From the IMG/VR virus record IMGVR_UViG_2850773344_000008: a stretch of DNA of 35,473 nucleotides; one strand, 5' to 3'. Under the pieces are notes generated by a model that ran no database searches, was not told where the DNA came from, and saw only the letters and a list, made by a program, of their open reading frames with translations. The DNA comes from a virus (Duplodnaviria > Heunggongvirae > Uroviricota > Caudoviricetes). The position numbers and the translations under genes were made by a program. Shown here piece after piece: positions 9,729 through 26,657 of this stretch (the first letter of the stretch is position 1; every line of letters begins with the position of its first letter).

Positions 9729-10476
9729 ATGAAAAATATTGCGACAGGCGGCGTTCTGGAACGCATCCGCCGACTGACCCCGCCACATGTAACCGCCCCA
9801 TTCAGAACGGTAGCGGAGTGGCGCGAGTGGCAACTTGCTGAAGGCCAGAAACGTAGCGAGGAGATCAACCGCCTGAATCGCCAGTTGCGGGTGGAAAAAA
9901 TTCTGAATCGCTCAGGCATCCAGCCGTTGCACCGTAAATGCTCGTTTGCGAATTACCAGGTGCAGAACGACGGCCAGCGATACGCGTTAAGCCAGGCGAA
10001 ATCCATCGCCGATGAACTGATGACCGGGTGTACAAATTTTGCGTTCAGCGGAAAACCTGATACCGGGTAGAATCACTTAGCGGCAGCTATCGGGAATCGC
10101 CTGCTGAAAGACGGTCAGACAGTGATTGTGGTTACCGTGGCTGATGTTATGAGCGCCCTGCACGCCAGCTATGACGACGGGCAGTCAGGCGAAAAATTTT
10201 TGCGGGAGCTGTGCGAAGTGGATCTGCTGGTTCTTGATGAAATTGGCATGCAGCGGGATACGAAAAAACGAGCAGGTGGTACTGAACCAGATTGTTGATC
10301 GCCGGACGGCATCGTTACGCGGTGTGGGGATGCTGACAAACCTGAACTATGAGGTGATGAAAACATTGCTCGGCGAGCGGGTGATGGATCGCATGGTCAT
10401 GAACGGCGGGCGCTGGGTGAATTTTAACTGGGAGAGCTGGCGTCCGAATGTTAGCCATTCGAGGGTTGTTAAGTAG
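9729..10476 (+). pseudogene. YdaV/DnaC-like helicase loader (AAA+ ATPase), inactivated
   Basis: In-frame TAG at 10068-10070 inside the Walker A motif (FSGKPDTG*); the same frame continues (NHLAAAIGNRLLKDGQTVIVV...VLDEIG) until an A6 run at 10263-10268, where the frame shifts into ORF 10171..10476. Confidence 0.6.
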
Positions 10477-10490
10477 TTTCAGGAGGATTT

Positions 10491-10913
10491 ATGGCGAAAC
10501 CTTTTACTCCCGAACAGCGGGAAGAACTGAAGACGCGAATTGTGGAACTCGTGCATCAGGACGGTCGGGTCACGATTCGGCAGTTGTCCGATGAAACAGG
10601 TATCAGTCGTGCGTCTGTCGGTCGCTTATGCATAGAACTGGTCGCAAGTGGTGATGTATATAATTCTGGCTACGGCTTATTCCCGTCTGAACAGGCTCGC
10701 AAGGACTGGCAAAGCGCCCGCAAAAAACTCTCGAGAGTAAAGGTGAGGAAACCGGTTGTTGTTGATCCGGACCTTATCTGGTCATTACCTGACGGAGAAA
10801 TACGCCGCTACGACAGGCGCCTGAATATAATCTGTCGCGAGTGCCGGAAGAGCGAAGCTATGCAGCGTGTACTGGCTTTCTATCAGGGTAATTTTCAGGA
10901 GGCGATACTGTGA
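10491..10913 (+). CDS. hypothetical protein with predicted winged-helix/HTH N-terminus
   Basis: 140 aa; strong RBS (CAGGAGGA) before ATG; HTH-like segment RVTIRQLSDETGISRASVGRL. Confidence 0.4.
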   Translation: MAKPFTPEQREELKTRIVELVHQDGRVTIRQLSDETGISRASVGRLCIELVASGDVYNSGYGLFPSEQARKDWQSARKKLSRVKVRKPVVVDPDLIWSLPDGEIRRYDRRLNIICRECRKSEAMQRVLAFYQGNFQEAIL

Positions 10914-11327: not shown

Positions 11328-11474
11328 TTAAATTTAGCACTGTTAAAAATTTAATCCTTAACCGGAGGGATTTCTGCACCCTCAAATCATCAGGAGACCG
11401 CCCGAAAGGGCGGGGAGCAGTCACACATCTGTTTCCGATAGCCCCGTTCTAATGCTACACTCTTTGATATTTTT

Positions 11475-12161
11475 ATGACCTCAATAAACATATTTATGAC
11501 AGTTGCTGATTTCAAACGGCCCAAATTGGAGCTCCCAAACGGGGCAAACAAACTACTACTGCACTCTTGCTGTGCTCCATGTTCCGGTGAGGTGATGGAG
11601 GCGCTTCAGGCCTCGGGAATCGACTACACCATCTTTTTCTACAACCCGAACATTCATCCTCAGAAAGAGTATTTAATTCGTAAGGATGAGAATATTCGCT
11701 TTGCTGAACAACACGGCGTGCCGTTTATTGATGCTGATTACGACACAGACAACTGGTTTGAACGAGCCAAAGGAATGGAATGGGAGCCCGAACGAGGGAT
11801 CCGTTGCACCATGTGTTTTGACATGCGTTTTGAGCGGACAGCGCTGTACGCCGCTGAAAATGGTTTCAGTGTGATCAGCAGTTCACTGGGCATTTCACGC
11901 TGGAAAAATATGCAGCAGGTTAACGACTGTGGGCGGCGAGCCGTCGCGCATTATCCGGGCATGGTGTACTGGGATTATAACTGGCGCAAGCAGGGCGGCT
12001 CGTCCCGTATGATTGAAATCAGCAAGCGCGAAAAATTCTATCAGCAGGAATATTGTGGCTGTGTGTATTCTCTGCGCGATACCAATCTACACCGCAAATC
12101 TCAGGGACGCCCTCTTATCAAAATTGGTCAACTCCACTACGGTAAAGAAGAGAAGGAGTGA
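11475..12161 (+). CDS. QueH-like (DUF208) Fe-S protein, putative epoxyqueuosine reductase
   Basis: 228 aa; signature [11 protein letters not shown] plus downstream Cys pairs (CTMC, CGC) as in DUF208/QueH proteins. Confidence 0.55.
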
Positions 12162-12388
12162 TTTTATGGGGCACCTTTCTGATTGATTTCATATTGGCGA
12201 GGTAAGTAGAATGACTGCGGGTGCTTGAGGCTATCTGCTTCAGGCATGAACACCAAAAGGCAGATAGAGAAAAGCCCCAGTTAACATTACGCGTCCGGCA
12301 AGACGCTTAACATTAATCTGAGGCCAATTTCATGCTTTGCACATGTAGGTTAGCCTCTTACATGCCGAAAGGCAAGGAGAAGCAGGCT

Positions 12389-12544
12389 ATGAAGCAGCAA
12401 AAGGCGATGTTAATCGCCCTGATCGTCATCTGTTTAACCGTCATAGTGACGGCACTGGTAACGAGGAAAGACCTCTGTGAGGTACGAATCCGAACCGGCC
12501 AGACGGAGGTCGCTGTCTTCGTAGACTACGAATCCAGGAAGTAA
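12389..12544 (+). CDS. Hok/Gef-family type I toxin
   Basis: 51 aa MKQQKAMLIALIVICLTVIVTALVTRKDLCEVRIRTGQTEVAVF...: single TM helix plus conserved Cys/periplasmic tail; AAGGAG 8 nt upstream; long structured leader. Confidence 0.75.
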   Translation: MKQQKAMLIALIVICLTVIVTALVTRKDLCEVRIRTGQTEVAVFVDYESRK

Positions 12545-12621: not shown

Positions 12622-12664
12622 CCCGCCCATCGCTGTGATCTCTCAGCGTTTCGGCGGGTTTTTT
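12622..12664 (+). terminator. intrinsic terminator downstream of hok-like gene
   Basis: GC stem CCCGCC/GGCGGG enclosing an inner CGCTG/CAGCG stem, followed by T6. Confidence 0.55.
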
Positions 12665-13719: not shown

Positions 13720-14009
13720 TGGTGGATTTACTTAAAGCGGCGCGGGGGCAGATGTGCACCGTCAGAATTCCTGGCTACTGCAATCACGATCCGGAAACGT
13801 CTGTGCTGGCGCATTACCGACTGGCGGGAACGTGCGGAACAGCGATAAAGCCACACGATATGCAGGCAGCGATTGCCTGTAGCTCGTGCCACGATTTAAT
13901 CGACGGGCGGGTAAAAACCAGCGATTACACCAAAGAAGAATTACGCCTGATGCATGCAGAAGGTGTTTTTCGCACACAAGAAATCTGGAGAAAGGAGGGA
14001 TATTTATGA
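13719..14009 (+). CDS. YbcO-like (DUF1364) putative nuclease
   Basis: 96 aa; Cys/His-rich motifs CTVRIPGYCNHDPETSVLAHYR...ACSSCHDLID; start overlaps upstream stop (TAATG). Confidence 0.6.
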   Translation: MVDLLKAARGQMCTVRIPGYCNHDPETSVLAHYRLAGTCGTAIKPHDMQAAIACSSCHDLIDGRVKTSDYTKEELRLMHAEGVFRTQEIWRKEGYL

Positions 14010-14560
14010 TTTACCCAACGAATACAGGAAAAAGCGGAGAACACCTTCGTCTCACCACGCTGGAAAGTGTCTGGATTCAGGGAAAACTACGTATGTGGGG
14101 GCGCTGGTCGTATATTGGTGGCGGTAAGACGGGGAATATGTTTAACCTGATGTTGACCTCTAAAAAGCTGACAAAAACGGCAATTAACGAGGCGCTCCGG
14201 AGGATGAAAAAAGCAGGTCTGAACAAGTCTGAACTTGAGGCTTTTTTGCGGGATATGATTAACGGTAAGCAAAAGAGCTGGCTGGCGCATTGTACTGATG
14301 CAGAGGCGTTATGTATTGATCGGGTCATAAGTGAGGTGCTGGCAGAGCATCCAGGATTGATTAGCGTCCTTCGGCAACGGTATGAGGGGCGGGGGATGAC
14401 CAAATGCAAAATGGCTGAACTGCTGAATGATGCACACCCGAAATGGAGTTTAAGAACCTGTGAAAGACGCATTGAGCATTGGCTAAAGGTGGCAGAATTT
14501 ATTTTGTACAAACCAATGGTTATGGCTTTTGGTATAGAGAAAAAAGTTATTGCTTTTTGA
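14006..14560 (+). CDS. putative late-gene antiterminator Q
   Basis: 184 aa from Met 14006 (AAGGAGGGA upstream, ATGA overlap with preceding gene); last gene before the tRNA array and the lysis cassette, the canonical Q position. Family not verified. Confidence 0.45.
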   Translation: MIYPTNTGKSGEHLRLTTLESVWIQGKLRMWGRWSYIGGGKTGNMFNLMLTSKKLTKTAINEALRRMKKAGLNKSELEAFLRDMINGKQKSWLAHCTDAEALCIDRVISEVLAEHPGLISVLRQRYEGRGMTKCKMAELLNDAHPKWSLRTCERRIEHWLKVAEFILYKPMVMAFGIEKKVIAF

Positions 14561-14749: not shown

Positions 14750-14826
14750 GGCCCTTTAGCTCAGTTGGTCAGAGCGAGCGACTCATAATCGCCAGGTCGC
14801 TGGTTCAAGTCCAGCAAGGGCCACCA
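14750..14826 (+). tRNA. tRNA with CAT anticodon (Ile2-lysidine type or Met)
   Basis: 77-nt cloverleaf: acceptor GGCCCTT/AAGGGCC, anticodon loop CTCATAA, T-loop TTCAAGT, encoded CCA. Confidence 0.8.
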
Positions 14827-14827
14827 A

Positions 14828-14904
14828 CCACCACTAGCTCATCCGGATAGAGCATCAACCTTCTAAGTTGACGGTGCGAGGTTCGAGTCCTCGGTGGTGG
14901 GCCA
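14828..14904 (+). tRNA. tRNA-Arg (anticodon TCT)
   Basis: 77 nt: acceptor CCACCAC/GTGGTGG, anticodon loop CTTCTAA, T-loop TTCGAGT, CCA. Confidence 0.8.
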
Positions 14905-14906
14905 GC

Positions 14907-14981
<75 letters not shown>

Positions 14982-14984
14982 TAT

Positions 14985-15059
<75 letters not shown>

Positions 15060-15703: not shown

Positions 15704-15871
15704 CTTTCCGATAGCACAGGTCTGTCGGGGGGGGGGATATGTATCAGATGGAAAAAATATCAACAGGCATTGCCTACGGCACCTCCGCCGGCAGTGCCGG
15801 CTACTGTTTTTTGCAGTGGTTGGATCAGTGAGGTGTACTGGCAATAGCGGACACTACCATTTGTTCTTTTT

Positions 15872-16663
15872 TTAAGCAGCCATCTGATGATATTTTTCCC
15901 TGAAGGCTGCCGGGGAGATATTCCCCAGACGAGAGTGACGACGCTGACGATTGTAGAAAATCTCAATGTATTCCCGTATTACTGAGATGGCTTCATCCCG
16001 GTTATTAAAACGATAGTGGCTCAGGCTCTCATTTTTCAGCGTTCCCCAGAAGCTTTCCATCGGAGCGTTGTCGTAACAGTTACCTTTACGCGACATTGAT
16101 GTTTTCAGACCAAACTGCTCCTGTATGACCCGGTAATCGTATGCGCAGTACTGTGAACCTCGATCAGAGTGGTGGATTAGCCCGGCAGGTGGGCGCTGGC
16201 TCCTGAGCGCCATAAACAGGGCTTTACCTGTCAGCTCTTTTGTCATGCGCTCTCCCATGGCGTAGCCGACAATTTCGCACGTATAAACATCTTTGATGCC
16301 AGCAACATACGTCAGGTCCGCCACCCAGACCTGATTTGGTGCTGTAGGAGCGAACGTCTGGTTCAGCAGATTTGGCGCAACTGGCAGATTGTGGTTCGGG
16401 TTCGTAGTCGCTCTGAACTTGCGTTTCTGCTTACAGCGTAGCCTCAGCTCCTTACGAAGACGTGCCAGTCGGTCACGACCAACGATGATGCCATTCTCTG
16501 CCAGCTCCGTCTGGAGCCGCCGGGTTCCATATGTTTCGCGAGTGCGGATATGTGCCACCTTAATCTCCAGTTTTAGCCGCTCATCACTTTGTTTTCTGTC
16601 TGAGGGTTCATGCTGTACCCAGTTGTAATAACCGCTCCTGGATACACCAAATACCTGACACAT
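15872..16663 (-). CDS. IS600 OrfB, 9-codon in-frame deletion variant
   Basis: 263 aa; ...ADLTYVA/GIKDVY... junction instead of ...ADLTYVATQEGWLYLAGIKDVY.... Confidence 0.8.
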   Translation of the reverse strand: MCQVFGVSRSGYYNWVQHEPSDRKQSDERLKLEIKVAHIRTRETYGTRRLQTELAENGIIVGRDRLARLRKELRLRCKQKRKFRATTNPNHNLPVAPNLLNQTFAPTAPNQVWVADLTYVAGIKDVYTCEIVGYAMGERMTKELTGKALFMALRSQRPPAGLIHHSDRGSQYCAYDYRVIQEQFGLKTSMSRKGNCYDNAPMESFWGTLKNESLSHYRFNNRDEAISVIREYIEIFYNRQRRHSRLGNISPAAFREKYHQMAA

Positions 16664-16698
16664 CGCTTCAATGGGAAATTGTTGTCGCCATTGTTCGA

Positions 16699-17001
16699 TT
16701 AACGCGTATTTTTCAGCGACTCCTGTGCAAAATACGCTGTTGCTTTTTTTAATATATCGCGCTCAAGGCGAGCTTCATTTAACGCCTTACGCAGTTGCAG
16801 AATTTCAGATTCCAGTTCAGCCACCGTGCGGGAACCAGGAGTACCGAGCCCTTTTCTGGCGGCGGTAACCCATTGTCCTAAAGTGCCTTCAGGAAGGGAT
16901 AATCGGGAAGCGCCTTCACTGATCGAAAGTTGATTTTCAAGAACCGTTCTGACAGCTTCGGCTTTGAACTCTTTAGAGTAACGTTGGGTTTTTCTGCTCA
17001 T
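16699..17001 (-). CDS. IS600 OrfA
   Basis: 100 aa identical to copy 1 OrfA. Confidence 0.9.
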   Translation of the reverse strand: MSRKTQRYSKEFKAEAVRTVLENQLSISEGASRLSLPEGTLGQWVTAARKGLGTPGSRTVAELESEILQLRKALNEARLERDILKKATAYFAQESLKNTR

Positions 17002-17193
17002 TATTAGCTCCTTCTGATGCCATTCTATTTCAGGAAGGAGTGTCCGTTAAACTCAGGCTACCTCACAGGTCAGTCCATCACAGTGGGCTGCGATTGGTGT
17101 GCTGGGAAGTCTGCTTCTGGGGCTTCTGACTTATCTGACGAATCTGTATTTCAAAATAAGAGAAGATAAGCGTAAGGCTGCGAGAGGTGAATA

Positions 17194-17709
17194 ATGTCGC
17201 CATCATTACGCAAGGCTGTTGCAGTTGCTATTGGTGGCGGGGCTGTTGCTATAGCATCTGTGTTAATCACTGGCCCAGGTGGTAACGATGGTCTGGAAGG
17301 TGTCAGCTACATACCATACAAAGATATCATTGGTGTATGGACTGTATGTCACGGACACACCGGAAAAGACATCATGCCTGGTAAAACGTATACCGAAGCA
17401 GAATGCAAAGCTCTCCTGAATAAAGACCTTGTCACTGTCGCCAGACAAATTAACCCGTACATCAAAGTCGATATACCGGAAACAACGCGCGGCGCTCTTT
17501 ACTCGTTCGTTTACAACGTGGGCGCTGGCAATTTCAGAACATCGACGCTTCTTCGCAAAATAAACCAGGGCGATATCAAAGGCGCATATGACCAGCTACG
17601 TCGCTGGACATATGCTGGCGGTAAGCAATGGAAAGGGCTGATGACCCGTCGTGAGATTGAGCGTGAAGTCTGTTTGTGGGGTAAGCGCCCCATCAGCGAC
17701 GTCTTGTGA
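17194..17709 (+). CDS. SAR endolysin (phage 21 R-type lysozyme); last ~9 codons supplied by the IS66-family terminus
   Basis: N-terminal Gly/Ala-rich signal-anchor-release segment ([20 protein letters not shown]), lysozyme core (...[11 protein letters not shown]...[28 protein letters not shown]...); IS66-type inverted repeat starts at 17681 inside the ORF. Confidence 0.8.
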
Positions 17710-17762
17710 AAATTGTCCTGTCTGGCAACAATCGCGCCCATCTATATTGATGGACACGAACG

Positions 17763-18437
17763 ATGAATTCCCAGACAACAAAAGATATTCCCTGCTTCCG
17801 TTCTTATTTGCCTGATGCCCTGCGTTTAAGATTTGAAGATAAACTGACCATCCGGGCCATCGCTCAGCGTCTGGGTCTCAGTCATTCCACAATACATACG
17901 CTTTTTCAGCGATTTCTTGCATCCGGTATCGCATGGCCATTGCCCGATTCAGTTTCATTCGCTCAACTTGACGCCATCCTTTATGCCAACAGAAAGAAGG
18001 AATTAACAGAGCCTCAAATCAGAGAAGGCTCATGGCGAAAAGAACGGCGAACCAGCTATAGCCGTGAATTTAAGGTCCGTCTGGCTAAGCAGGCATTACA
18101 GCCTGGGGCTGTTGTTGCCCGGATCGCCAGAGAACACGATATCAATAATAACCTGCTGTTTAAATGGAAAAGCCAGTACGAGGACGGCTTACTGAGCGAT
18201 GATGACATACAGGAATGCATGCCTGTCCCGGTGGCACTGACTGATACGCCGGAGCCGACCAGACCAGTTACAAATCCCTTCTGGCGTAACAAGCATGATG
18301 AGCGCCCTGAGGGGGCTCCCGGAAACGTCCCACGGTGCGAGCTGCATCTTAAATCAGGTGTGGTAAAACTGTTTGACCCTCTCACTCCGGAACTGTTACG
18401 GGCGCTAATCCGCGAAATGAAAGGGGGTATCCGATGA
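17763..18437 (+). CDS. IS66-family Orf1 (TnpA-like, HTH)
   Basis: 224 aa; HTH segment LTIRAIAQRLGLSHSTIHTLFQRF; C-terminal half (RRTSYSREFKVRLAKQALQPGAVVARIAREHDINNNLLFKWKSQY) typical of IS66 TnpA. Confidence 0.65.
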   Translation: MNSQTTKDIPCFRSYLPDALRLRFEDKLTIRAIAQRLGLSHSTIHTLFQRFLASGIAWPLPDSVSFAQLDAILYANRKKELTEPQIREGSWRKERRTSYSREFKVRLAKQALQPGAVVARIAREHDINNNLLFKWKSQYEDGLLSDDDIQECMPVPVALTDTPEPTRPVTNPFWRNKHDERPEGAPGNVPRCELHLKSGVVKLFDPLTPELLRALIREMKGGIR

Positions 18438-18784
18438 TAACGCTGCCGACCGGTACCAAAATCTGGATCATCGCTGGCATCACAGATATGCGTTGTGGCT
18501 TCAATGGCCTGGCTTCGAAGGTGCAGAACACGCTGAAAGATGACCCGTTCTCCGGGCATATCTTCGTCTTCCGGGGCCGCAGTGGCAAAATGGTGAAAAT
18601 ACTGTGGGCCGATCGTGACGGGTTATGCCTGTTCACCAAACGTCTGGCCGGTGACCCGGGAAGGGAAAGTGCACCTGACGCCAGCTCAGTTATCCATGCT
18701 ACTGGAGGGGATCGCGTGGCCACATCCCAAACGGACAGAACGGCCTGGCATCCGGATATAACCCGTGATAAAACAAGGGAATGA
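18434..18784 (+). CDS. IS66-family Orf2 (TnpB)
   Basis: 116 aa [28 protein letters not shown].... Confidence 0.8.
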
Positions 18785-20382
18785 ACAATGAACTCCCCGA
18801 TGATATTGAGCTGCTTAAAGCCATGTTGCGTAAGCAACAGAGTCGGCTTCGACAGTATGCCTGTCAGGTCGCGGGCTATGAGCAGGAAATTGAACGGCTG
18901 AAAGCGCAACTCGACAGGTTGCGTCGTATGTTGTTCGGCCAGAGTTCAGAGAAAAAGCGTCATAAGCTTGAAAATCAGATCCGACAGGCAGAAAAACGAC
19001 TGTCGGAACTGGAAAACCGGCTGAACACAGCCAGAAATCTTCTGGAAGATGCATCGTCAGTCACAGATTCACCTGACACCAGTCCCCCGTCAGAAAACCC
19101 GATCGCCAGTAAGCCTGAATTCCCGGGACGAAAATCTTCACGAAAACCGCTGCCGGCAGAACTTCCCCGGGAGACACATCGCCTTCTGCCTGCTGAAACC
19201 AGTTGCCCGGCCTGTGGAGGTGTTCTGAAAGAAATGGGGGAAACAATCTCAGAGCAACTGGATATCATTAATACCGCCTTTAAAGTTATCGAAACCATAC
19301 GTCCCAAACTGGCCTGTAGCCGGTGTGATGTCATCGTTCAGGCACCACTTCCTCCTAAACCGATCGAACGCGGTTATGCCAGTGCAGGGTTACTTGCACG
19401 GATCCTGGTCAGCAAATATATGGAACATATCCCTTTATATCGCCAGTCAGAAATATACGCGCGACAGGGCGTGGAGCTGAGCCGTAATACCATGGTGCGC
19501 TGGGTATCAGAAATGGCAGACAAACTCCGTCCTCTGTATATAGCGCTGAATGACTATGTTCTGGAGGCAGGAAAGGTGCACGCAGATGACACTCCGGTGA
19601 AAGTACTGGCCCCGGGGAACGGAAAGACGAAAACGGGTCGTCTGTGGGTATACGTCAGGGATGATCGTAATGCGGGTTCATCCCTGCCGGCAGCCGTCTG
19701 GTTCGCGTATTCGGCAGATCGCAAAGGAGAACATCCGCAGCTCCACCTGGCAAAGTATCAGGGCGTACTGCAGGCTGATGCCTATGCAGGTTATAACGTA
19801 CTGTACGAAACGGGCCGGGTGAAGGAAGCCGGGTGCCTGGCCCACGCCCGCCGAAAAATCCATGACGAGGATGTGCGCCGTCCGACAGAAATGACTCAGG
19901 AAGCGCTCAGACGGATAGCAGAGTTATACGACATAGAAGCGGAGATACGTGGCAGTCCGGCAGAGGAACGGCTTGCAGTCAGAAAAGCCAGAAGCGTCCA
20001 GTTGATGCAGTCGTTGTACGACTGGATACAGTTGCAGAGGAAAACGCTGTCGAAACATGCGGAGATGGCGAAGGCGTTCGACTATATCCTGAATCACTGG
20101 AATGCGCTGAACGAGTTCTGTCGTGACGGCTGGGTGGAAATAGACAACAACATCGGTGAAAACGCGTTACGATCGGTGGCGGTTGGAAGAAAAAATTATC
20201 TCTTTTTCGGCTCAGACAAGGGAGGAGAAAGTGCGGCGATCATCTACAGTCTGCTGGTCACCTGCAAACAGAACGAAGTGGAGCCGGAGGACTGGTTGCG
20301 CGAAGTGATCGAGAAGCTCAATGACTGGCCGTCGAACCAAGTGCATGAACTGCTGCCCTGGAACTTCTCGTCTGTAAAATAA
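18781..20382 (+). CDS. IS66-family Orf3 (TnpC, DDE transposase)
   Basis: 533 aa; N-terminal coiled coil/leucine zipper, CxxC...CxxC zinc motif (CPACGG...CSRCD), C-terminal DDE core. Confidence 0.85.
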
Positions 20383-20414
20383 TCCTTACGCTACGTACTT
20401 CTCGGGGCGCTTAC

Positions 20415-20694
20415 GGATGTTGGGACTTGAACCGAAGAACACGGCGGTGCGGAGTCCGGAGAGTAACGGAATAGCAGAGAGCTTCGTGAAAACGATAAAG
20501 CGTGACTACATCAGTATCATGCCCAAACCAGACGGGTTAACGGCAGCAAAGAACCTTGCAGAGGCGTTCGAGCATTATAACGAATGGCATCCGCATAGTG
20601 CGCTGGGTTATCGCTCGCCACGGGAATATCTGCGGCAGCGGGCTTGTAATGGGTTAAGTGATAACAGATGTCTGGAAATATAGGGGCAAATCCA
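20415..20694 (+). mobile_element. IS2 3'-terminal fragment (about 280 bp)
   Basis: Identical to the last ~280 bp of the two full IS2 copies (end of insD plus right terminus ...GGGGCAAATCCA); abuts the IS66-family right end. Confidence 0.8.
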
Positions 20695-20921: not shown

Positions 20922-22090
<1,169 letters not shown>

Positions 22091-23968: not shown

Positions 23969-24677
23969 TTTCTGGACTATGCGGGCACGTAACAAAGTGC
24001 TTTATGGTGGTCGGTCATCGTCAAAATCATGGGATGCCGCTGGCATTGCCATATTTCTGTCGAATAAATACACCCTGCGTTTTTGTTGTGCCCGTCAGAT
24101 CCAGAATAAAATCGAAGAGTCGGTGTATACCCTGCTCAAAATTCAGATAGACAGGTTTGGTCTGCGGCACCGTTTCCGTATTCTGAACAACAAAATCATT
24201 AACCGGGTTACTGGCTCGGAATTTGTTTTTTATGGATTATGGCGCAACATCGAAGAAATTAAGTCACTGGAGGGGATCGATGTGTTGTGGCTGGAAGAAG
24301 CCCACGCACTGACGGAATACCAGTGGAAAATTCTGGAGCCAACGATCCGTAAAGAGGGTTCGGAATGCTGGTTCATATTCAACCCCGGACTTGTTACTGA
24401 TTTCGTCTGGCGCAACTTCGTTGTTGATCCGCCCGAAGGCACTCTCATCCGCAAAATTAACTATGACGAAAATCCGTTTCTGTCTGACACCATGCTTAAG
24501 GTTATCGACGCGGCGCGACGCCGTGATCCGGATGGTTTTAAACATGTGTATGAGGGCGTTCCGGAGTCTGATGATGATGCGGCAATTAGACTGGCCCCCT
24601 GAATCTCCAGACAACCAGTATCACTTATTTAAGTGATAGTCTTAATACTAGTTTTTAGACTAGTCATTGGAGAACAG

Positions 24678-25043
24678 ATGATTGATGTCTTAGGGCCGGA
24701 GAAACGCAGACGGCGTACCACACAGGAAAAGATCGCAATTGTTCAGCAGAGCTTTGAACCGGGGATGACGGTCTCCCTCGTTGCCCGGCAACATGGTGTA
24801 GCAGCCAGCCAGTTATTTCTCTGGCGTAAGCAATACCAGGAAGGAAGTCTTACTGCTGTGGCCGCCGGAGAACAGGTTGTTCCTGCCTCTGAACTTGCTG
24901 CCGCCATGAAGCAGATTAAAGAACTCCAGCGCCTGCTCGGCAAGAAAACGATGGAAAATGAACTCCTCAAAGAAGCCGTTGAATATGGACGGGCAAAAAA
25001 GTGGATAACGCACGCGCCCTTATTGCCCGGGGATGGGGAGTAA
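24678..25043 (+). CDS. insC: IS2 InsC
   Basis: 121 aa; one substitution relative to copy 1 (KKWIAHAPL vs KKWITHAPL). Confidence 0.85.
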
Positions 25044-25906
25044 GCTTAGTCAGCCGTTGTCTCCGGGTGTCGCGTGCGCAGTTGCACGTCATTCTCAGAC
25101 GAACCGATGACTGGATGGATGGCCGCCGCAGTCGTCACACTGATGATACGGATGTGCTTCTCCGTATACACCATGTTATCGGAGAGCTGCCCACGTATGG
25201 TTATCGTCGGGTATGGGCGCTGCTTCGCAGACAGGCAGAACTTGATGGTATGCCTGCGATCAATGCCAAACGTGTTTACCGGCTCATGCGCCAGAATGCG
25301 CTGTTGCTTGAGCGAAAACCTGCTGTACCGCCATCGAAACGGGCACATACAGGCAGAGTGGCCGTGAAAGAAAGCAATCAGCGATGGTGCTCTGACGGGT
25401 TCGAGTTCTGCTGTGATAACGGAGAGAGACTGCGTGTCACGTTCGCGCTGGACTGCTGTGATCGTGAGGCACTGCACTGGGCGGTGACTACCGGCGGCTT
25501 CAACAGTGAAACAGTACAGGACGTCATGCTGGGAGCGGTGGAACGCCGCTTCGGCAACGATCTTCCGTCGTCTCCAGTGGAGTGGCTGACGGATAATGGT
25601 TCATGCTACCGGGCTAATGAAACACGCCAGTTCGCCCGGATGTTGGGACTTGAACCGAAGAACACGGCGGTGCGGAGTCCGGAGAGTAACGGAATAGCAG
25701 AGAGCTTCGTGAAAACGATAAAGCGTGACTACATCAGTATCATGCCCAAACCAGACGGGTTAACGGCAGCAAAGAACCTTGCAGAGGCGTTCGAGCATTA
25801 TAACGAATGGCATCCGCATAGTGCGCTGGGTTATCGCTCGCCACGGGAATATCTGCGGCAGCGGGCTTGTAATGGGTTAAGTGATAACAGATGTCTGGAA
25901 ATATAG
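25001..25906 (+). CDS. insD: IS2 InsD
   Basis: 301 aa; one substitution relative to copy 1 (MDS vs MDN). Confidence 0.9.
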
Positions 25907-26657
25907 GGGCAAATCCAGCAATCATCAAACTGTCTTGGATAGAAGCCGCAGTGGATGCGCACAAAACGTTAAATTTCGAACCCAGTGGAAGAAAGCGTAT
26001 TGGCTTTGACGTGGCTGACAGTGGTACAGATAAGTGCGCTAACGTTTACCGTCACGGATCCGTTGTTTTCTGGGCCGACGAATGGAAGGCCAAAGAAGAT
26101 GAATTACTGAAGAGCTGCCAGCGTACTTATCAGGCGGCGCTGGAGCGTGAAGCAGATATTGTTTACGACTCTATCGGTGTTGGTGCGTCTGCCGGTGCTA
26201 AATTCTCTGAAATTAACGCTGACCGGAAGAGCGAGAACGCATACGCGCGACGTGTGAATTACCAGAGGTTTAACGCCGGTGCTGGTGTGCATGAGCCAGA
26301 TGACGAGTACAACGGCATCCCCAACAAAGACTTTTTCGCAAATCTTAAGGCTCAGGCATGGTGGCTGGTGGCTGACCGTTTCAGAAATACGTTTAACGCC
26401 ATTAACAACGGAGAACAGTATCCTGTGGATGAGCTGATCAGCATAGATTCTCGTTGTCCGTTGCTTGAAAAGCTGAAACTGGAACTGACAACACCTCATC
26501 GTGATTTCGACCGTAACGGACGTGTGATGGTCGAAAGTAAAAAAGACCTCGCAAAACGCGAGATACCGTCACCAAACGTTGCTGATGCATTCATTATGGC
26601 CTTCGCGCCAATCGATACATCGCTGGATATCTGGGAACAGCTGGGGAGACAGGCCTG

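Follow-up and report, generated by a model that had tools for sequence, protein, structure and literature searches.

What is the role of an epoxyqueuosine reductase gene in a prophage whose host already has such an enzyme? The question is raised by an open reading frame (ORF) at positions 11475-12161 on the + strand of a 35,473-nucleotide stretch of Caudoviricetes DNA (IMG/VR record IMGVR_UViG_2850773344_000008, hereafter the window). It belongs to a lambdoid prophage, in which it is flanked by replication/Ren-like genes and the NinB-Q region; an earlier sequence-only reading had assigned it to the DUF208/QueH family. Queuosine is made only in tRNAs with a GUN anticodon, i.e. those for Asp, Asn, His and Tyr (PMC9508795), and its synthesis through Tgt and QueA is established in Escherichia coli (PMC5372724, PMC9508795). 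The last step, from epoxyqueuosine (oQ) to queuosine (Q), is catalysed in E. coli by QueG, a cobalamin/[4Fe-4S] enzyme (PMC4646009, PMC5175355), of which QueH is a non-orthologous replacement (PMC5372724). The gene is already correctly named in RefSeq and the enzyme family is well known; what is new is the setting, the context and the biology. We hold with moderate confidence that the prophage carries an orthodox queH, captured together with its native promoter region, which would act as a lysogenic-conversion (auxiliary metabolic) gene for an oQ-to-Q step independent of vitamin B12.

The ORF, 228 amino acids long as first called, was confirmed, and its proposed family membership was borne out by the profile search. 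Pfam PF02677 (QueH/DUF208) matches with E 1.9e-65 and 220.6 bits, the gathering cut-off being 23.5 bits, and residues 27-201 correspond to profile positions 1-174 of 175. The 11-residue family signature occupies residues 27-37. The solved QueH of Thermotoga maritima (PDB 7lc5/7lc7/9deu) matches over 175 residues, 27-203 against 4-178, with E 5.2e-22. The cysteine motifs CCAPC, CxxC and CGC are all found in the ORF. Their seven cysteines (Cys32, 33, 36, 111, 114, 194 and 196) are invariant among 28 QueH sequences spanning Enterobacterales, Pseudomonas, Salinicola and Oxalicibacterium, and 125 of 221 positions are identical across this set, distant orthologues included. Six of the seven align with T. 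maritima Cys9, 10, 87, 90, 169 and 171, and Cys36 of the CCAPC motif is invariant in proteobacterial and staphylococcal sequences. Li et al. (2021) reportedly found that the cysteines of CCAPC/D, CxxC and CGC hold a [4Fe-4S] cluster and an adjacent iron. PHROG 3217, whose function is given as 'unknown', matches the ORF with E 1.9e-138. The NCBIfam models gave no match to it, though RefSeq names the protein QueH, and no PADLOC defence-system family matched at E up to 0.01. The assignment of the prophage protein to the DUF208/QueH family is secure, and all sequence evidence describes an intact, standard, unmodified QueH.

11496..12161, + strand: queH coding sequence, 221 aa from Met8 (Pfam; PDB 7lc5; RefSeq start and name; start-codon conservation; seven invariant cysteines)

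The real start codon is probably the ATG at 11496 (Met8), which gives a protein of 221 amino acids, rather than the ATG at 11475. RefSeq places the start of queH there, the ATG at 11496 is invariant in the upstream alignment, and homologues from other genera begin to align at residue 8-10. A start at 11475 was rejected on two grounds: chromosomal Enterobacter copies have ATT or ATA at that position, and substitutions cluster at codons 3, 5 and 6, which make up three of the eight variable amino-acid positions among the prophage alleles (nine protein variants in 86 prophage copies). The start given by PHROG 3217, at Met41 (window position 11595), was likewise rejected, as the CCAPC motif would be lost. 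Met41 is preceded by GGTGAGG, and the PHROG profile implies that many phage gene calls use it. This suggests that the sequences behind PHROG 3217 were called from a start too far downstream, and such truncated calls probably contribute to its 'unknown function' label.

By megablast, queH is present in 995 of 5426 complete E. coli genomes (about 18%), always in lambdoid prophages. In 985 of the 995, a single match with 90-99.9% identity, annotated 'epoxyqueuosine reductase QueH', spans 80% or more of the gene. queG occurs in each of the 5426, which gives every strain with queH two reductases; these counts agree with the view of the sequence-only reading that E. coli relies on QueG. Escherichia albertii also carries queH, an O157:H7 prophage carries it followed by an NgoMIV-like restriction-modification pair, and the viable Escherichia phage HannyBb has it at the same position, labelled 'hypothetical protein'. 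The remaining 'phage' matches in the databases are unannotated metagenome fragments or mislabelled bacterial contigs. Two such QueH records look like bacterial chromosome: CAKLQH020000001.1 ('Acinetobacter phage MD-2021a', 328 kb, with soxR, cynX and tadA) and OR844989.1 (an 'unverified' Staphylococcus phage contig of 283 kb). A 94.5-kb circular record with a plasmid label, pNR3838_1 (NZ_AP040233.1), contains dicB, queH, hokD, Q and an Ile-Arg tRNA pair in an early region of lambdoid type, and could represent a prophage that was excised or wrongly assembled. Literature searches on QueH, DUF208 and epoxyqueuosine reductase with phage terms found no paper on a phage-borne QueH, and a 2019 survey of 7-deazaguanine genes reported no QueA, QueG or QueH homologues in the viruses analysed (PMC6884629). 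In the searchable literature, it has apparently gone unnoticed that a housekeeping tRNA-modification gene is spreading as a phage moron, having reached about 18% of E. coli as well as Shigella.

The gene is intact in all 86 prophage copies, with no pseudogenes, and the median pairwise ratio of non-synonymous to synonymous divergence (dN/dS) is 0.04. The window allele and the O157 allele differ at 19 synonymous and 4 non-synonymous sites (synonymous divergence pS 0.135, non-synonymous divergence pN 0.007). Prophage queH is under strong purifying selection. Such selection contradicts the idea that queH is a functionless passenger which hitch-hikes with the hok/sok addiction module or with restriction-modification genes. 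That idea draws on the inheritance of queH and hok/sok as one block in 45 loci, on the NgoMIV-like system that follows queH in the O157 type, and on the fact that every E. coli genome has the function already, through queG. Against it stand the low dN/dS, the lack of a single pseudogene among the 86 copies despite about 13% synonymous divergence between alleles, and the 125 residues, all motif cysteines among them, that are identical across distant orthologues. We consider a passenger role very unlikely. Some Shigella-type alleles (loci L003, L099 and L100), including that of Shigella flexneri SFBU1023, carry the substitution G48E, where the window allele has Gly. Residue 48 is invariant in all 28 QueH sequences compared, and the G48E alleles could be loss-of-function.

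Purifying selection of this kind is accompanied by an ordinary evolutionary rate. Mean identity to 13 outgroup QueH proteins is 82.1% for the phage protein and 81.1-83.4% for eleven chromosomal copies, i.e. there is no signal of rate acceleration or of neofunctionalisation in prophage QueH. As an alternative, the sequence-only reading had offered 7-deazaguanine derivatives in DNA, in place of tRNA, as possible substrates of the DUF208 protein. The argument is one of analogy, since phages are known to place 7-deazaguanines in their DNA (PMC6884629). The DpdA/TGT-like and preQ0-synthesis genes that this would need are not annotated in the intact version of the prophage (in E. coli FDAARGOS_944), in the O157-type prophage or in HannyBb. 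Moreover, the 7-deazaguanine phages of the survey have no QueA, QueG or QueH (PMC6884629), and the prophage protein has not diverged from housekeeping QueH. The DNA-modification alternative thus found no support, and we attach next to no probability to it.

Outside Escherichia, the nearest QueH proteins are those of Enterobacter hormaechei (93% identity), Scandinavium (92%) and Kluyvera (91%). Four annotated homologues, from E. hormaechei, Enterobacter quasihormaechei, Scandinavium and Serratia marcescens, lie in ordinary chromosomal contexts, and so do those of Erwinia. The neighbours across the four contexts are GntR/LysR regulators with budAB, a DeoR regulator with a glycosyl hydrolase, a short-chain dehydrogenase, and glycogen phosphorylase. 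Erwiniaceae show the conserved chromosomal order dcm-queH-HD-domain protein, usually followed by tRNA-Asn. In Erwinia, Pantoea and Izhakiella (loci L017-L044), queH is located 1-6 kb upstream of tRNA-Asn(GUU), one of the four queuosine substrates. Prophage queH contains neither AUA nor AGA codons, both of which its prophage neighbours use heavily. This host-like codon usage fits the recent capture of a host housekeeping gene, and by its sequence queH looks like a recently captured housekeeping gene of Enterobacteriaceae.

How the gene moves can be read from the breakpoints of homology between prophages. On the 5' side, 55 loci share a breakpoint at 11425; on the 3' side, 11 loci (queH alone, the O157 type) break at 12324 and 45 (queH together with hok/sok) at 12623-12626. 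As is characteristic of a moron, queH is a discrete insertion with common boundaries across mosaic phages.

11425..12324, + strand: minimal mobile queH cassette (recombination breakpoints common to prophages)
12219..12544, + strand: hok/sok type I toxin-antitoxin locus, usually co-inherited with queH (Rfam RF01794, 117 bits; RefSeq hokD); sok RNA match 12219-12394, mok/hokD ORF 12332-12544
11453..11461, + strand: extended -10-like element TGcTACACT, putative promoter element about 35 nt upstream of the ATG at 11496 (pattern TGnTATAAT)
11398..11413, + strand: GC-rich hairpin CCGCCC-GAAA-GGGCGG just upstream of the cassette boundary; without a U-tract, not a canonical terminator

The queH of E. 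hormaechei adjoins an integrase fragment. In strain B56 (positions 7181-7885 of locus L005) the gene, 93% identical, has the upstream 45 nt of the phage cassette in common with it and lies beside a truncated phage-integrase gene between metabolic genes, which suggests that the cassette is also mobile outside lambdoid phages.

Upstream of queH, the element TGcTACACT does not vary among the phage copies or between these and three chromosomal copies of Enterobacter; in two of the three, the rest of the upstream DNA does not align. A looser pattern, TGnTAnnnT, is located 25-55 nt before the start codon in 21 chromosomal homologues out of 76, and hexamers resembling TACACT, TAAACT or TACAAT are found at about the same place in Erwinia. 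The element emerged only from the comparative alignment and not from a consensus scan. We propose that TGcTACACT may be the native queH promoter, carried into the phage along with the gene, where it would allow expression in the lysogen. The terminator scan returned no intrinsic terminator downstream of queH and nothing at the 11398-11413 hairpin; a 56-nt stretch at 11380-11435, which comprises this hairpin and two other short helices, has a folding energy of -21.1 kcal/mol (z -3.4). The Rfam scan upstream of queH revealed no riboswitch or other RNA, only a chance c-di-GMP match with E 1.5.

The sequence of events that we propose is as follows. A lambdoid phage would have captured queH and its native promoter region from an Enterobacteriaceae chromosome, and the gene would since have spread through prophages of Escherichia and Shigella as a small moron cassette located where ren meets nin, in many cases with hok/sok. 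The protein, predicted to be an iron-sulfur epoxyqueuosine reductase, would convert epoxyqueuosine-34 to queuosine-34 (Q34) in a cobalamin-independent manner, its substrates being host tRNA-Asp, -Asn, -His and -Tyr. The oQ-tRNA substrate would come from host Tgt and QueA; neither tgt nor queA, for which no search was made, lies in the window. QueG needs cobalamin and E. coli is unable to make cobalamin de novo, so a prophage-encoded QueH would free the last step from the supply of B12, and a lysogen could complete queuosine synthesis whatever that supply. Frey et al. (1988) reportedly tied the epoxyqueuosine step to cobamide supply. We infer the activity of the enzyme in vivo, its transcription from TGcTACACT in the lysogen and a benefit under B12 limitation.

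Who profits, the lysogen or the lytic phage? We favour the lysogen, because queH is retained in a dead prophage and because it has a host-type promoter element. The DnaC-like/YdaV gene, a single ORF of 248 aa in FDAARGOS_944, is split into two frames in the window (9729-10070 and 10171-10476), and insertion sequences (IS) interrupt the late region; the prophage of the window is thus replication-defective, yet its queH is intact. The opposite view is that queH serves lytic growth: transcribed mainly from the early-right promoter after induction or infection, it would raise Q34 in host tRNAs for phage translation even in B12-starved cells, any effect on the lysogen being incidental. The gene does lie within the early-right operon, in the orientation of that operon and flanked by the replication genes and ninB/Q, and the viable phage HannyBb keeps it. 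In addition, a preprint reports higher queG expression and a higher Q/oQ ratio in Shewanella upon phage infection (10.64898/2026.03.05.709803), so that the oQ-to-Q step is regulated during infection there. These data suggest that the step matters in phage-host conflict. Several observations do not fit a lytic role: the share of U-ending codons, NAU/(NAU+NAC), is 0.50-0.55 in early and late prophage genes and 0.54 in ordinary host genes, which leaves no special codon demand; queH is kept intact in an IS-riddled prophage no longer able to grow lytically; and the promoter-like element is common to chromosomal copies. A gene for lytic growth is therefore unlikely in our judgement.

The reading of queH as a lysogen's gene meets a number of objections. 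No Shine-Dalgarno sequence precedes the ATG at 11475 or that at 11496. Upstream of queH, the hexamer-pair scan gave neither a + strand promoter nor a good -35, and we infer transcription in the lysogen solely from a conserved motif without a recognisable -35. The gene being co-oriented with the early-right operon, expression only after induction is equally possible. The metal ligands of phage QueH are putative, being assigned by alignment. Deletion of queG had no effect on growth in one tested setting (PMC11841063), and a fitness effect of oQ as compared to Q has not been established in E. coli.

If the lysogen is the beneficiary, the consequences could extend to the host cell. Conceivably, though we regard this as doubtful, lysogeny reprograms host tRNA modification: expressed from its own promoter, QueH would keep Q34 on the four host tRNAs when cobalamin is scarce or BtuB-dependent uptake is lost, and would thereby change decoding and phenotypes. 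Stress tolerance, biofilm formation and resistance to other phages would be among the downstream phenotypes in that case. As far as we found, no phage-encoded enzyme of the queuosine-tRNA branch has been described before; QueH would then be the first, and about 18% of E. coli would show a new type of lysogenic conversion. If the enzyme is active, the tRNA modification state of about one fifth of E. coli strains, O157:H7 and Shigella included, would depend on prophage content, and queuosine synthesis in queH strains would be freed from its dependence on vitamin B12. This would bear on work on queuosine physiology, where QueG is usually taken to be the only such enzyme of E. coli, and on the ecology of B12 in the gut. 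The occurrence of queH corrects the view, stated for the virus set of PMC6884629, that phages have no genes of the queuosine-specific branch.

A second cargo of the prophage, four tRNA genes 2.6 kb downstream of queH, had been combined with queH by the sequence-only reading into a coordinated translation-tuning cargo. queH lies upstream of the Q antiterminator gene, in the early/nin region, and appears to have a promoter-like element of its own, while the tRNA genes lie downstream of Q.

14006..14560, + strand: Q-like late antiterminator (DUF1133), between queH and the tRNA array (PHROG 753, E 5.6e-79; RefSeq DUF1133)
14750..15059, + strand: phage tRNA array Ile2(CAU), Arg(UCU), Thr(UGU), Gly(UCC) (ARAGORN; Rfam; RefSeq tRNA-Ile/Arg/Thr/Gly)

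ARAGORN gives the anticodons CAT, TCT, TGT and TCC, Rfam confirms all four genes, and RefSeq lists the first as tRNA-Ile, a lysidine-dependent AUA reader. The proposed decoding of AUA, AGA, ACA and GGA by the array is therefore sound. These codons are enriched 2-6 fold in prophage genes:

AUA share of Ile codons: 16-23% in prophage genes, 4% in ordinary host genes
AGA share of Arg codons: 9-15% in prophage genes, 2% in ordinary host genes
ACA share of Thr codons: 20-30% in prophage genes, 12% in ordinary host genes
GGA share of Gly codons: 17-21% in prophage genes, 9% in ordinary host genes

The codon bias of the prophage accounts for the tRNAs and not for queH. A phage demand for codons decoded by queuosine tRNAs was considered and rejected, as NAU/NAC usage equals the host average.

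Co-selection of queH and the array as one translation-tuning package has a statistical argument in its favour. An array is present in 31 of 38 queH-anchored loci (those with at least 6.5 kb of downstream sequence) and in 21 of 44 queH-less loci with the same Q family, for a nominal Fisher p of 0.0025, the loci being redundant isolates and the two sets differing in Q type. The association is thus confounded, and we treat it as unproven. Other observations speak against co-selection. Arrays downstream of queH contain only the anticodons CAT, TCT, TCG, TTT, TGT and TCC, none of them GUN; they occur in six types and at 22 spacings, and seven of the queH-anchored loci have no array. In two loci (L163 and L166) Q is the same (99.5% identical) and so is the four-tRNA array, yet no queH lies within the 4.8-5.9 kb available upstream. 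Among the E. coli genomes the exact queH-to-tRNA block is found in only 2, as compared to 92 with the four-tRNA array and 995 with queH. Of the proposed coordinated cargo, there remains the nominal excess of arrays beside queH; the missing GUN tRNAs, the separable module and the host-level NAU/NAC usage leave the idea weakly supported. Our conclusion is that queH and the array have no direct link and that the array is a separate module, and we rate co-selection as improbable.

The phage tRNA-Thr(UGU) and tRNA-Gly(UCC) genes (14907-15059) are 98% identical to a host tRNA-Thr/tRNA-Tyr/tRNA-Gly cluster, presumably the thrU-tyrU-glyT locus. The host locus has a tRNA-Tyr gene, for a queuosine substrate, between Thr and Gly, which the phage array does not have; the array resembles a host tRNA cluster that was captured and lost its Tyr gene.

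The window as a whole is of Shigella origin. At its left edge (1-1812), beside the prophage remnant, it encodes an IpaH-family type III effector, a Shigella hallmark, which is an E3 ligase with LRR and NEL domains. A S. flexneri chromosome has a queH that is 99.9% identical at the DNA level, with the single amino-acid difference G48E and with neighbours alike. The intact version of the prophage in E. coli FDAARGOS_944, located beside ybhA, is 99.3-99.8% identical to the window in common blocks. Its gene order runs integrase, cI/cro, replication initiator, DnaC-like ATPase, Ren-like/DUF977 protein, PHROG 1621 protein and queH, followed by hok/sok, NinB, DUF1364 (PHROG 'HNH endonuclease'), the Q-like antiterminator, the four tRNAs, and lysis and head genes. 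In the window, seven IS (three IS600-like, two IS2-like, one of the IS66 family and another of the IS3 family) and a Mu-like transposase divide the prophage into at least six blocks.

10491..10913, + strand: Ren-like exclusion/DUF977 protein, the usual upstream neighbour of queH (PHROG 142, E 2.7e-44; RefSeq DUF977)
2605-3883, 5625-6955, 15829-17071, 17682-20693, 20922-21761, 24587-25917, 31679-32949 and 32947-34581: IS and transposase elements

A C4 antisense RNA and isrK (Rfam) were found at 4933-5121 on the - strand, beside a Rha/Ash-family regulator gene at 4324-5289. This arrangement is the immunity RNA layout of the P1/P7 type, here in a lambdoid prophage.

Among known systems, the closest is QueH itself (PF02677; T. 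maritima PDB 7lc5), with which the prophage protein has a full-length profile match and the CCAPC, CxxC and CGC motifs in common. It is 78-93% identical to the chromosomal QueH of Enterobacterales and other Gammaproteobacteria, and it differs from these housekeeping enzymes in genomic setting only, being found in lambdoid prophages of Escherichia, Shigella and E. albertii alongside queG. QueG (b4166) acts on the same four tRNAs and catalyses an identical reaction (PMC5372724, PMC5175355). Unlike QueH, it has an unrelated fold and a B12 cofactor, and its gene belongs to the core, being found in all 5426 genomes. Staphylococcus aureus likewise has two redundant reductases that differ in cofactor; its QueG and QueH have been interpreted as an adaptation or back-up according to cofactor availability (PMC13443448). 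There, both enzymes belong to the organism's own tRNA-modification set, whereas the QueH of E. coli arrives by lysogeny and in about 18% of strains. The phage 7-deazaguanine clusters (DpdA with FolE/QueD/QueE/QueC) belong to the same metabolic pathway family, but they end at preQ0, preQ1 or G+ derivatives and have no QueA, QueG or QueH (PMC6884629), and the queH prophage has none of the cluster genes. Finally, the morons and tRNA cargo of lambdoid phages, such as ileZ-argN-argO downstream of Q in Shiga toxin (Stx) phages, resemble queH in that it too is a small, independently acquired nin-region cassette with its own promoter-like signal, and queH phages often also carry rare-codon tRNAs. The tRNA cargo supplies decoding capacity directly, whereas queH would act on a modification of tRNAs encoded by the host and not by the phage.

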